A stretch of 64,000 nucleotides of DNA, from the NCBI RefSeq assembly GCF_003334355.1, contig NZ_QOWP01000016.1. One strand, written 5' to 3'. The position numbers and the translations under genes were made by a program. This document shows, piece by piece, positions 1-5,625 of the stretch (its first letter is position 1; each line of letters starts with the position of its first letter). The notes under the pieces are model-generated. The model was not told where the DNA came from and made no database searches. It was given only the letters and a program-made list of their open reading frames with translations. Origin of the DNA: Escherichia coli. GTDB lineage: Bacteria > Pseudomonadota > Gammaproteobacteria > Enterobacterales > Enterobacteriaceae.

Positions 1-250
1 AAGGCATTTCTATCGACAGAGTGAATTATTAATTCCCGATGTACTGGCGAATGTTAATTTTTCCCAGGCTGATGAGGTCATAGCTGATTTACGAGACAAA
101 CTTCATCAATTGTGTGAAATGTTATTTAATCAATCTGTAGCGCCCTATGCACATCATCCTAAATTAATAAGCACATTAGCGCTCGCCCGCGCCACGCTAT
201 ACAAACATTTACGGGAGTTAAAACCGCAAGGAGGGCCATCAAATGGCTGA
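1..250 (+). CDS. casA: Cse1/CasA (type I-E Cascade large subunit), C-terminal fragment truncated by window start
   Basis: Frame from base 2 is open with no stops to TGA at 248-250, ending ...KPQGGPSNG; stop overlaps casB start; position immediately upstream of casB as in the E. coli I-E operon. Confidence 0.75.
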   Translation, partial: RHFYRQSELLIPDVLANVNFSQADEVIADLRDKLHQLCEMLFNQSVAPYAHHPKLISTLALARATLYKHLRELKPQGGPSNG

Positions 251-725
251 TGAAATTGATGCAATGGCTTTATATCGAGCCTGGCAACAACTGGATAACG
301 GAGCATGTGCGCAAATTAGACGTGTTTCAGAACCTGATGAATTACGCGATATCCCTGCGTTTTATAGGCTGGTGCAACCTTTTGGTTGGGAAAACCCACG
401 TCACCAGCAGGCTCTTTTACGCATGGTGTTTTGCCTGAGCGCAGGAAAGAATGTCATCCGACATCAGGACAAAAAACCGGAGCAAACAACAGGTATCTCG
501 TTGGGAAGAGCTTTAGCCAATAGTGGAAGAATTAACGAGCGCCGTATCTTTCAATTAATTCGGGCTGACAGAACAGCCGATATGGTCCAGTTACGTCGAT
601 TGCTTGCTCACGCCGAACCCGTACTTGACTGGCCATTAATGGCCAGGATGTTGACCTGGTGGGGAAAGCGCGAACGCCAGCAACTTCTGGAAGATTTTGT
701 ATTGACCACAAACAAAAATGCGTAA
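243..725 (+). CDS. casB: Cse2/CasB, Cascade small subunit (160 aa)
   Basis: ORF 243..725, 160 aa, translation matches my recollection of E. coli CasB; operon context. Confidence 0.93.
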   Translation: MADEIDAMALYRAWQQLDNGACAQIRRVSEPDELRDIPAFYRLVQPFGWENPRHQQALLRMVFCLSAGKNVIRHQDKKPEQTTGISLGRALANSGRINERRIFQLIRADRTADMVQLRRLLAHAEPVLDWPLMARMLTWWGKRERQQLLEDFVLTTNKNA

Positions 726-737
726 GGAAACCTTTCT

Positions 738-1829
738 ATGTCTAACTTTATCAATATTCATGTTCTGATCTCTCACAGCCCTTCATGTCTGAACCGCGAC
801 GATATGAACATGCAGAAAGACGCTATTTTCGGCGGGAAAAGACGAGTAAGAATTTCAAGTCAAAGCCTTAAACGTGCGATGCGTAAAAGTGATTATTACG
901 CACAAAATATTGGTGAATCCAGTCTCAGAACAATTCATCTTGCACAATTACGTGATGTTCTTCGGCAAAAACTTAGTGAACGTTTTGACCAAAAAATCAT
1001 CGATAAGACATTAGCGCTGCTCTCCGGTAAATCAGTTGATGAAGCCGAAAAGATTTCTGCCGATGCGGTTACTCCCTGGGTTGTGGGGGAAATAGCCTGG
1101 TTCTGTGAGCAGGTTGCAAAAGCAGAGGCTGATAATCTGGATGATAAAAAGCTGCTCAAAGTTCTTAAGGAAGATATTGCCGCCATACGTGTGAATTTAC
1201 AGCAGGGTGTTGATATTGCGCTTAGTGGAAGAATGGCAACCAGCGGCATGATGAGTGAGTTGGGAAAAGTTGATGGTGCAATGTCTATTGCGCACGCGAT
1301 CACTACCCATCAGGTTGATTCTGATATTGACTGGTTCACCGCCGTAGATGATTTACAGGAACAAGGTTCTGCACATCTGGGAACACAGGAATTTTCATCG
1401 GGTGTTTTTTATCGTTATGCCAATATTAACCTCGCTCAACTTCAGGAAAATTTAGGCGGTGCCTCCAGGGAGCAGGCTCTGGAAATTGCAACCCATGTTG
1501 TTCATATGCTGGCAACAGAGGTCCCTGGAGCAAAACAGCGTACTTATGCCGCTTTTAACCCTGCGGATATGGTAATGGTTAATTTCTCCGATATGCCACT
1601 TTCTATGGCAAATGCTTTTGAAAAAGCGGTGAAAGCGAACGATGGCTTTTTGCAACCGTCTTTACAGGCGTTTAATCAATATTGGGATCGCGTTGCCAAT
1701 GGATATGGTCTGAACGGAGCCGCTGCGCAATTCAGCTTGTCTGATGTAGACCCTATTACTGGCCAGGTACAGCAAATGCCTACTTTAGAACAGTTAAAGT
1801 CCTGGGTTCGTAATAATGGCGAGGCGTGA
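738..1829 (+). CDS. casC: Cas7e/CasC, Cascade backbone subunit (363 aa)
   Basis: ORF 738..1829, 363 aa; operon position between casB and casD. Confidence 0.94.
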
Positions 1830-1831
1830 AC

Positions 1832-2506
1832 ATGAGATCTTATTTGATCTTGCGACTTGCTGGGCCAATGCAAGCCTGGGGGCAGCCGACCTTTGAAGGA
1901 ACGCGACCTACCGGAAGATTTCCGACCCGAAGCGGGTTATTAGGGCTACTCGGGGCTTGTCTTGGGATCCAACGTGATGATACTTCTTCATTACAGGCGT
2001 TATCAGAGAGTGTGCAATTTGCAGTGCGCTGCGATGAACTCATTCTTGACGATCGTCGTGTGTCTGTAACGGGGTTGCGTGATTACCATACAGTCCTTGG
2101 AGCGCGAGAAGATTACCGTGGTTTGAAAAGTCATGAAACGATTCAAACATGGCGCGAATATTTATGTGATGCCTCCTTTACCGTCGCTCTCTGGTTAACA
2201 CCACAGGCAACGATGGTTATGTCAGAACTTGAAAAAGCAGTATTAAAGCCTCGGTATACACCGTATCTGGGGCGGAGGAGTTGTCCGCTAACACAACCGC
2301 TTTTTCTCGGGACATGTCAGGCATCGGATCCTCAGAAGGTGCTATTAAATTATGAGCCCGTTGGCGGCGATATTTATAGTGAGGAATCAGTTGACGGGCA
2401 TCATTTAAAATTTACGGTGCGCGACGAACCGATGATCACCTTGCCTCGACAATTTGCTTCCCGAGAATGGTATGTGATTAAAGGAGGTATGGATGTATCT
2501 CAGTAA
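1832..2506 (+). CDS. casD: Cas5e/CasD (224 aa)
   Basis: ORF track begins at GTG 1826; ATG at 1832 gives MRSYLILRLAG..., the N-terminus I recall for CasD; casC stop at 1827-1829. Confidence 0.9.
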   Translation: MRSYLILRLAGPMQAWGQPTFEGTRPTGRFPTRSGLLGLLGACLGIQRDDTSSLQALSESVQFAVRCDELILDDRRVSVTGLRDYHTVLGAREDYRGLKSHETIQTWREYLCDASFTVALWLTPQATMVMSELEKAVLKPRYTPYLGRRSCPLTQPLFLGTCQASDPQKVLLNYEPVGGDIYSEESVDGHHLKFTVRDEPMITLPRQFASREWYVIKGGMDVSQ

Positions 2507-3092
2507 AGTCATCATTGCCAGGGCCTGGAGCAGGGATCTTTACCAACTTCACCAGGGATTATGGCATTTATTTCCAAACAGACCGGATGCTGCTCGTGAT
2601 TTTCTTTTTCATGTTGAGAAGCGAAACACACCAGAAGGCTGTCATGTTTTATTGCAGTCAGCGCAAATGCCTGTTTCAACTGCCGTTGCGACAGTCATTA
2701 AAACTAAACAGGTTGAATTTCAACTTCAGGTTGGTGTTCCACTCTATTTTCGGCTTCGGGCAAATCCGATAAAAACTATTCTCGACAATCAAAAACGCCT
2801 GGACAGTAAAGGGAATATAAAACGCTGTCGGGTTCCGTTAATAAAAGAAGCAGAACAAATCGCGTGGTTGCAGCGTAAATTGGGCAATGCCGCGCGCGTT
2901 GAAGATGTGCATCCCATATCGGAACGACCACAGTATTTTTCTGGTGATGGTAAAAGTGGAAAGATCCAAACGGTTTGCTTTGAAGGGGTGATCACCATCA
3001 ACGACGCGCCAGCGTTAATAGATCTTGTACAGCAAGGTATTGGGCCAGCCAAATCGATGGGATGTGGCTTGCTATCCCTGGCTCCACTGTGA
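2493..3092 (+). CDS. casE: Cas6e/CasE, pre-crRNA endoribonuclease (199 aa)
   Basis: ORF 2493..3092, 199 aa, overlaps casD end by 14 nt. Confidence 0.94.
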   Translation: MYLSKVIIARAWSRDLYQLHQGLWHLFPNRPDAARDFLFHVEKRNTPEGCHVLLQSAQMPVSTAVATVIKTKQVEFQLQVGVPLYFRLRANPIKTILDNQKRLDSKGNIKRCRVPLIKEAEQIAWLQRKLGNAARVEDVHPISERPQYFSGDGKSGKIQTVCFEGVITINDAPALIDLVQQGIGPAKSMGCGLLSLAPL

Positions 3093-3107: not shown

Positions 3108-4311
<1,204 letters not shown>

Positions 4312-4416
4312 AAACAAAGAATTAGCTGATCTTTAATAATAAGGAAATGTTACATTAAGGTTGGTGGGTTGTTTTTATGGGAAAAAATGCTTTAAGAACA
4401 AATGTATACTTTTAGA
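4312..4416 (+). promoter_or_regulatory. CRISPR leader (AT-rich, between cas2 stop and first repeat)
   Basis: About 105 bp AT-rich sequence directly abutting the first repeat on the cas2 side; type I-E leaders are known to carry the array promoter and integration signals. Confidence 0.7.
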
Positions 4417-4567
4417 GAGTTCCCCGCGTCAGCGGGGATAAACCGCCAAAGCAAAAGAAGTCGTCGATAATATGCGTGAGTTCCCCGCGTCAGCGGGGAT
4501 AAACCGGGCGCACTGGATGCGATGATGGATATCACTTAGAATTCCCCGCCCCTGCGGTAGAACACCC
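4417..4567 (+). CRISPR. Type I-E CRISPR array: 3 repeats (29 bp) and 2 spacers (32 bp); third repeat degenerate
   Basis: Repeat GAGTTCCCCGCGTCAGCGGGGATAAACCG at 4417-4445 and 4478-4506; spacers at 4446-4477 and 4507-4538; degenerate terminal repeat GAATTCCCCGCCCCTGCGGTAGAACACCC at 4539-4567. Confidence 0.92.
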
Positions 4568-4587
4568 AGCTCCCATTTTCAAACCCA

Positions 4588-5625
4588 TCAAGACGCCTTC
4601 GCCAACTCCTTCACCAGAGGTAGCATTATCCGCATAACGTCACGGCAGCGACGTTCTATTCTTCCAGGAAGTGCCTTATCAATATGCTGTTGATTATCCA
4701 GTCTTACGTCATGCCAGCTATTTCCCGCAGGGAATGCGGCTGTTTTTGCGCGTTGCTGATAACCATCCTTATTCCCAAGATTCCAGTTAGTCGCTTCCAC
4801 CGAAAGTACAGCAATGCCCGCTTTGTCGAATATTTCTGCGTCATTACAACACCCAGTGCCTTTCGGATAATTTTTATTCAAACCCGGATTGGTCGTTGCG
4901 GCTATTCCGTGACTGCGTGCAATTGCCAGCGCCCTGTCGCGCGTTAATTTCCTTACTGCTTCAGGGGTTTTTACACCGCTGTTGAAATACAATTTATCGC
5001 CAACAATTAAGTTATCGAGATTAATCACCAGCAGCGTATTTTTCTTTTCGGTGTCACTCATCCGCTTGAGTAAATTCTCAGCGCCTAATTTCCCTTCCTC
5101 TTCGCCGCTGGTCGCCACAAATCGAATACCATACTCGGTAGGCGTATTTTTCAGGCGTTCTGCCAATTCCAGCATGACACCTAAACCTGCGGCGTTATCA
5201 TCCATTCCTTGTAACGTCAGCCCGCCGAGATTGGCATCGGCGTCAGCATCGCTCAGCGGGGCGTAAGTATCCAGATGCGCCATAATGATGATCTGCTGCG
5301 GCGCTTTGCCTTCATGAGCGGCAATCACCGTACTTCCCGTCACGTTATGCCAGCTCTTACGATTATCGCGGGCGGTATAAATATACCGACTATTAAATGT
5401 CCGAATATCACTGCGATAACCCATTTGCTGAAACTGTTGGCGAATATAATCGGCAGATAACATTTCTGCAGGAGTTCCGGTCATGCGTCCCGGAAAGAAA
5501 GTAGCAATATGTCGTGCCTGAGTATTAGCAAAATCGCCAGGTTTAGGTGACGAGGCGTGTACGGGGAGAATAAAGCATACGCCGAGCGCCAGGGCAGCGG
5601 TACGGTGGCGCAATGCGGAAAACAT
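4588..5625 (-). CDS. iap: Alkaline phosphatase isozyme conversion aminopeptidase (345 aa)
   Basis: ORF 345 aa with N-terminal signal peptide; position between CRISPR array and cysD as in E. coli. Confidence 0.9.
   Translation of the reverse strand: MFSALRHRTAALALGVCFILPVHASSPKPGDFANTQARHIATFFPGRMTGTPAEMLSADYIRQQFQQMGYRSDIRTFNSRYIYTARDNRKSWHNVTGSTVIAAHEGKAPQQIIIMAHLDTYAPLSDADADANLGGLTLQGMDDNAAGLGVMLELAERLKNTPTEYGIRFVATSGEEEGKLGAENLLKRMSDTEKKNTLLVINLDNLIVGDKLYFNSGVKTPEAVRKLTRDRALAIARSHGIAATTNPGLNKNYPKGTGCCNDAEIFDKAGIAVLSVEATNWNLGNKDGYQQRAKTAAFPAGNSWHDVRLDNQQHIDKALPGRIERRCRDVMRIMLPLVKELAKAS

Follow-up and report, generated by a model that had tools for sequence, protein, structure and literature searches.

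A short type I-E CRISPR1 allele in Escherichia coli, probably derived by internal deletion

Why does an Escherichia coli chromosome with an apparently intact set of type I-E cas genes hold only two spacers in the array beside them? The question was raised by a first-pass annotation of the 64,000-nucleotide stretch of DNA analysed here (the window), which described two 32-nt spacers, two identical repeats and one degenerate repeat downstream of the cas genes and proposed that the strain had either lost spacers or acquired few. The sequence reads as described. Positions 4312-4587 are the type I-E CRISPR1 array of E. coli, for which the name CRISPR 2.1 is also in use; as usual, it is located between cas2 and iap. 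The system is thoroughly known and the array is a routine strain variant, the short allele being new only as an allele. The best explanation, and one that we consider quite probable, is that a known CRISPR1 array was shortened by internal deletion, most likely leaving one canonical crRNA directed against a prophage tail gene.

Anatomy of the array and its cas genes

All elements of the array are given for the plus strand, and the repeats recur with a period of 61 bp. The interval starts with an AT-rich leader of 105 nt (4312..4416), which is 100% identical to the leaders of the K-12 derivative C600 and of strains OW1E2, PSS-12 and EC5. It is followed by a first 29-nt repeat, R1 (4417..4445, GAGTTCCCCGCGTCAGCGGGGATAAACCG), which carries the T-loop allele discussed below and has a predicted 7-bp stem with a 4-nt loop (-15.1 kcal/mol). 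Next come the newest spacer, S1 (4446..4477, 32 nt, CCAAAGCAAAAGAAGTCGTCGATAATATGCGT), and a second 29-nt repeat, R2 (4478..4506), which has the same sequence as R1 and is the probable deletion junction. The second 32-nt spacer, S2 (4507..4538, GGCGCACTGGATGCGATGATGGATATCACTTA), is the species-wide trailer-end (anchor) spacer. The array closes with a degenerate terminal repeat, R3 (4539..4567, GAATTCCCCGCCCCTGCGGTAGAACACCC), which mismatches the K-12 consensus at 9 of 29 positions and has a predicted hairpin of only 4 bp (-5.3 kcal/mol); its sequence is the same in OW1E2, E41, PSS-12, MDK9L1 and EC5. A trailer of 20 nt separates R3 from the iap stop codon at 4588. S1 is thus the sole spacer with an intact repeat on either side.

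At a threshold of up to three mismatches, no further copy of the repeat was found in the 64 kb window (0 of 100 shuffled sequences gave a match), and neither spacer had a self-target within the window. A search against Rfam gave no match at E <= 1 between positions 3800 and 5000, and only tRNAs when the whole window was searched at the gathering score. This has no bearing on the CRISPR assignment, since the latter rests on the repeats, the spacers, the cas genes, the leader and the position next to iap. Likewise, a scan of positions 4250-4650 with sigma-70 promoter and terminator consensus sequences found no site, which is uninformative because the leader is the same as the leader of K-12.

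The genes upstream of the array all lie on the plus strand. The window opens within casA (cse1), of which it holds the last 83 codons (2..250) as an open frame with no internal stop, matching the terminal part of casA as annotated in PSS-12. It is followed by casB (cse2; 243..725, 160 aa; NCBIfam TIGR02548, 57.8 bits against a cut-off of 28.5), whose protein is the same as CasB of PSS-12, by casC (cas7e; 738..1829, 363 aa; TIGR01869, 425 bits) and by casD (cas5e; 1832..2506, 224 aa; TIGR01868, 282 bits), which, read from the ATG at 1832, encodes the same protein as PSS-12 Cas5e. The repeat-processing endoribonuclease is encoded by casE (cas6e; 2493..3092, 199 aa; TIGR01907, 268 bits), with His20 present. 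The two adaptation genes come last: cas1e (3108..4025, 305 aa; TIGR03638, 378 bits) has E141, H208 and D221 and matches K-12 Cas1 at 304 of 305 residues, and cas2e (4027..4311, 94 aa; TIGR01873, 142 bits) matches K-12 Cas2 at 91 of 94. On the other side of the array, iap (4588..5625, minus strand; NCBIfam NF007568, 705 bits) encodes the alkaline phosphatase isozyme conversion aminopeptidase and serves as a flanking landmark; it is annotated as iap in related genomes, and the order cas2-array-iap is kept in every related genome that was compared.

All six cas proteins encoded within the window, from CasB to Cas2e, are therefore full length and score above the curated NCBIfam cut-offs for type I-E, which bears out the intact casBCDE-cas1-cas2 set of the first-pass annotation. 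Its wording "complete operon" was an overstatement, as the window does not reach to cas3, the operon promoter or the remainder of casA. In PSS-12, the closest genome, full-length cas3 and casA are found upstream, which bears on the window only indirectly. The cas region of PSS-12 is otherwise that of the window, with cas1 as the sole exception: at about window position 3340, PSS-12 has a 1-base indel with a base difference next to it, and its cas1 is annotated as frameshifted. The window copy has the intact 305-aa form.

Over its full 64 kb, from casA up to the tRNA cluster behind csrA, the window is collinear with PSS-12 and thus represents ordinary E. coli core chromosome. Identity to PSS-12 is not uniform, being 99.88% over positions 4419-32332 and 99.07% (302 mismatches) over positions 31332-64000; this shift looks like a change of ancestry along a recombination mosaic. 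The window ends in a tRNA cluster (63562-64000) with three Rfam tRNA matches, the last of them cut by the window end, which corresponds to the tRNA-Ser and tRNA-Arg cluster of PSS-12 after csrA. A further difference between the related genomes is an island of about 10.6 kb in OW1E2 (L010 35468-45882), located between mutS and ygbA at the equivalent of about window positions 25071-25114 and missing from the window, E41 and PSS-12. It contains an integrase, an IS3 element, a type I restriction-modification methylase with its S subunit, an AAA ATPase and a Fic/DOC protein.

Distribution of the spacers and the missing units

Spacers and repeats were counted in 5,426 complete E. coli genomes. The two spacers behave very differently. 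S2 is present in 4,242 of these genomes, K-12 included, as a single copy in each, and it closes every array that was parsed, with the degenerate repeat behind it; the terminal spacer of C600 equals S2 except for the final base. No paper came up when the literature was searched for the S2 sequence string. Exact copies of S1, in contrast, occur in just two other genomes, OW1E2 (NZ_CP067245) and E41 (NZ_CP069707), where S1 is the leader-proximal spacer of an 8- and a 9-spacer array, respectively, that ends with S2. A version of S1 with three mismatches (CCAAAGCAAAAGAAGCTGTCGATAATATGCGC) is the leader-proximal spacer of CRISPR2, the second I-E array, next to queE, in five genomes; in strain 1943 it lies at L007 1501-1532. 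The combination of S1 directly followed by S2 was found in none of the 5,426 genomes, the best matches to the whole interval being 4-spacer arrays.

Comparison with K-12 shows how much of the locus is conserved. The K-12 CRISPR1 array, also of type I-E and proximal to iap, also lies between cas2 and iap, behind an identical 105-nt leader, and is likewise built of 29-nt repeats and 32-nt spacers, with highly similar Cas1 and Cas2 proteins. However, it has 13 spacers (as counted in C600) and mostly a GCCA loop where the window has two spacers and a GUCA loop, and apart from the terminal spacer the two arrays have no spacer in common. The earlier statement that the K-12 array is much longer was thus correct.

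The arrays of OW1E2 and E41 are far closer. They share with the window the leader, the T-loop repeats at the leader end, S1 as first spacer and S2 with the degenerate repeat as last unit, and their flanks are 99.6-99.9% identical to it, but they keep six and seven further spacers, respectively, between S1 and S2. For OW1E2 the identity is 99.6-99.8% on either side of the array, and within the array the sole difference is that 366 bp, equal to six 61-bp units, are absent from the window. This gap is placed between R2 of the window and the last intact repeat of OW1E2. The 4-spacer alleles (EC5 and many clinical isolates) also have T-loop repeats and the same leader, terminal spacer and degenerate repeat as the window; none of their other three spacers is S1, and all three are common to inner positions of the OW1E2 and E41 arrays. 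The inner spacers shared among the arrays of E41, OW1E2, PSS-12, MDK9L1 and EC5 keep one order, and each array lacks a different selection of them. Repeated internal deletions leave such a pattern, and the five arrays look as if they had been trimmed in different ways from a single spacer series.

An internal deletion is favoured because two longer arrays have S1 as their newest spacer and only S2 is widely found at the trailer end. For the same reason, of the two possibilities raised at the outset, loss of spacers is preferred and the acquisition of few spacers is disfavoured. We also considered whether both spacers occupy the trailer end of many arrays, as expected if the array were an ancestral short form. 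This holds for S2 only (4,242 genomes); the leader-proximal position of S1 in longer arrays led us to reject S1 and S2 as an ancestral short array. The ancestor would instead have been a longer array of the OW1E2/E41 type, in which recombination or replication slippage between R2 and the last intact repeat would remove six or seven units and leave the newest and the oldest spacer. S2 would persist because the repeat downstream of it has degenerated too far for recombination with the others. Such an event agrees with the literature on this locus: the allelic variation of CRISPR1 stems largely from spacer deletion (PMC4906003; PMC10910852), and among 1,048 isolates the arrays had 2-32 spacers with a mean of 11 (PMC10910852).

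The flanking sequence complicates this picture. The flanks of the window are closest to those of PSS-12, whose array is without S1. In addition, nine SNPs are clustered within 155 bp at window positions 3989-4143 (the 3' end of cas1 and the 5' part of cas2), where the window and PSS-12 share one cas1-cas2 allele and OW1E2 and E41 the other; as the sequence around it is nearly identical, the cluster looks like a short recombination tract directly upstream of the array. Given the PSS-12-like flanks and this cluster, simple vertical descent from an array like that of OW1E2 is not enough, and a further recombination event must be assumed. One could therefore suppose that the array was never long, i.e. 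that the ancestor consisted of the leader, a repeat, S2 and the degenerate repeat, and that S1 was taken up independently from the protospacer that OW1E2 and E41 had sampled. The match of the flanks and of the cas1-cas2 allele to PSS-12 rather than to the genomes that share S1 would fit such a history, as would the identity of R1 and R2, which is expected from a single integration that duplicates the first repeat. The intact cas1 and cas2 could in principle acquire spacers, and the same protospacer register, as an allele with three mismatches, was separately acquired into CRISPR2 in five genomes; such repeated uptake of an S1-like protospacer raises the plausibility of an independent event in this strain. 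However, it would require the identical 32-nt sequence to be taken from one phage allele in two lineages with flanks that are 99.6-99.8% identical and that both carry T-type repeats at the leader end. The difference to OW1E2 amounts to exactly six whole units, the literature attributes most change at this locus to deletion (PMC4906003, PMC10910852), and no array with S2 alone surfaced in the searches with the window array or with each spacer. On balance we regard independent uptake of S1 as unlikely and retain the internal deletion.

A more trivial cause would be the collapse of a longer array across the identical 29-nt repeats during short-read assembly. R1 and R2 are indeed identical, the gap is an exact multiple of 61 bp and the allele is found in no complete genome, and nothing more direct points to an artefact. 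The surrounding 64 kb, however, are collinear with a complete genome and show no other anomaly, and the spacers are unique, so that common assemblers running at a k above 29 keep such arrays. Short arrays also exist in nature, as CRISPR1 arrays range from 2 to 32 spacers (PMC10910852) and 4-spacer arrays are present in many complete genomes. We thus think it highly improbable that the short array is an assembly product.

The T-loop repeat

In both intact repeats of the window a T is found where the first-pass annotation gave a C for the commonly cited I-E repeat, which would make it a loop-position variant. The C was right, since most repeats of K-12 (derivative C600) read GCGCCAGCG (the C form), and so was the placement: the T in GCGTCAGCG is the second base of the hairpin tetraloop. 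Both forms fold alike at -15.1 kcal/mol, the repeat hairpin having 7 bp and a z-score of -3.96. The T form was detected in 240 of the 5,426 genomes at 981 sites, compared with 3,869 genomes and at least 27,001 sites for the C form. The T-containing repeat is thus not the standard repeat at this locus, and the remark on a variant stands. It is not a private mutation either; this possibility was rejected on account of the 240 genomes and of the same loop in published repeat tables, in which a related T-loop repeat that starts with GTG is listed among the E. coli repeat types (PMC12299204).

Within this array family, OW1E2 and E41 have the T form at the leader-end repeats and at the last intact repeat, and the last intact repeat of K-12 also has a T at that loop position. 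The T loop is an established minority allele, and in this array family it is what the leader-end repeat usually carries. Most likely it is a lineage marker there, without predicted structural effect. In type I-E adaptation each new repeat is copied from the first, leader-proximal repeat, so that a change in the loop at the leader end spreads to the units added later. By this route the C-to-T change would have spread through the array, and it was most likely inherited within the family.

The target of spacer 1 and the activity of the array

An exact protospacer of S1 was found neither in GenBank phages, PLSDB plasmids and IMG/VR nor in GTDB representative genomes and JGI metagenomes. Searches with S1 and S2 against GenBank phages and with both against plasmids returned only chance-level matches (E of about 1). 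For S2, no protospacer was found in GenBank phages or plasmids, and its core was not found in IMG/VR. The matches of the plasmid search that came from E. coli were megabase-sized records filed as plasmids, presumably mislabelled chromosomes, or one 293-kb record, and all carried the array's own S2. With a degenerate S1 pattern, GTDB representative genomes gave no match and JGI metagenomes only the 26/32 variant described below.

The closest site to S1 matches at 30 of 32 positions and has an AAG, the canonical I-E PAM, directly upstream. It lies on the IMG/VR contig UViG_2529293142_000021, a prophage contig of myovirus type, near the 3' end of a 476-aa ORF (phrog_3654). This ORF is found downstream of genes for a tail sheath protein, a protein in tail-tube position and a tail protein in chaperone position, with more tail genes after it, and by this order it is in the position of a tape-measure gene. 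The gene in tail-tube position belongs to a PHROG family labelled as head closure, and phrog_3654 itself is a PHROG family without assigned function. A second match, of 26 of 32 positions and again with AAG, lies in the homologous gene of a prophage whose tail genes have P2-style names; six E. coli genomes and a single metagenome contig carry this prophage. The three closest S1-like sites are all directly preceded by AAG, with matches of only 30/32 and 26/32. The nearest deposited relatives of the S1 target gene (region L009 4396-10382) have 75% amino-acid identity and come from the Escherichia phage records vB_EcoM-569R10, -720R5, -705R4 and -783R5 (H224-H227), which at 20-27 kb are unusually small.

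The differences between spacer and site are informative. Read in the frame of the ORF, the two differences between S1 and the 30/32 protospacer are a synonymous change and an alanine-to-valine exchange, and the S1 variant in CRISPR2 differs from this protospacer at three sites, all of them synonymous third codon positions. This pattern of substitutions fits diverged alleles of one coding gene, which argues that the assignment of S1 does not rest on a chance match. The assignment also fits the report that CRISPR1 spacers of E. coli match prophages almost exclusively (PMC10910852). Furthermore, the differences suggest that the CRISPR2 variant was taken up independently from another allele of the same phage gene. 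A bolder reading of these data is that the protospacer in tape-measure position was captured repeatedly and independently, in CRISPR1 of this strain and of OW1E2 and E41 and, from a different phage allele, in CRISPR2 of five other genomes, and that the deletion in this strain kept precisely S1, the newest spacer; we put this forward as a tentative and rather doubtful proposal.

What the array would do can be sketched by analogy with K-12. The leader would drive a short pre-crRNA, which CasE (Cas6e) would cut at the base of each intact repeat hairpin. As the third repeat is degenerate and S1 alone lies between intact repeats, the array most likely yields one canonical crRNA, that of S1, and S2 is probably not released as a canonical crRNA. 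At a site adjoining an AAG PAM, the S1 crRNA would target the tail gene in tape-measure position of a family of temperate prophages of myovirus type. What speaks against this is that the best match is mismatched at spacer position 2, a position that belongs to the seed region according to work on K-12. Transcription, processing and interference, like the direction of the deletion and the spread of the T allele, are steps that we infer.

A possible objection is that the array is an inert relic, idle because the cas genes are silent or cas3 or casA is defective, so that its length would reflect neutral decay. The state of the cas operon in related strains lends some weight to this idea. In the two genomes with S1, IS elements have disrupted the cas operon, whereas the visible cas genes of the window are intact: OW1E2 has ISKpn26 between fragments of cas3 and casC, with neither casA nor casB annotated between them (L010 10002-11599), and in E41 (L012 1-9991) IS3, IS1A and IS150 interrupt cas3, casA and cas1, with casD frameshifted. 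The annotated frameshift in PSS-12 cas1 points in the same direction, and it is established that H-NS silences this cas operon in K-12. Arrays have moreover been reported to be stable over very long periods (PMC10910852). On the other hand, the six cas genes visible in the window are full length with their catalytic residues, the leader is intact, and PSS-12, the closest relative, has full-length cas3 and casA. We therefore consider an inert array a serious possibility, though the less probable one. It concerns the activity of the array and not its identity, and it is compatible with a history of internal deletion.

For the locus itself, the array would illustrate neatly how deletion between repeats shortens CRISPR1 alleles, with the trailer spacer protected by its degenerate repeat. 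The S1-S2 allele is a possible lineage marker, of little importance beyond strain typing. Repeated capture of the tail-gene protospacer, if real, would indicate either a hot spot of acquisition or selection that is still being exerted by a natural I-E system commonly considered silent. That one prophage tail-gene site supplies the newest spacer of two arrays in different lineages is a mildly useful lead, as it bears on whether the natural I-E system of E. coli ever acts against temperate phages.
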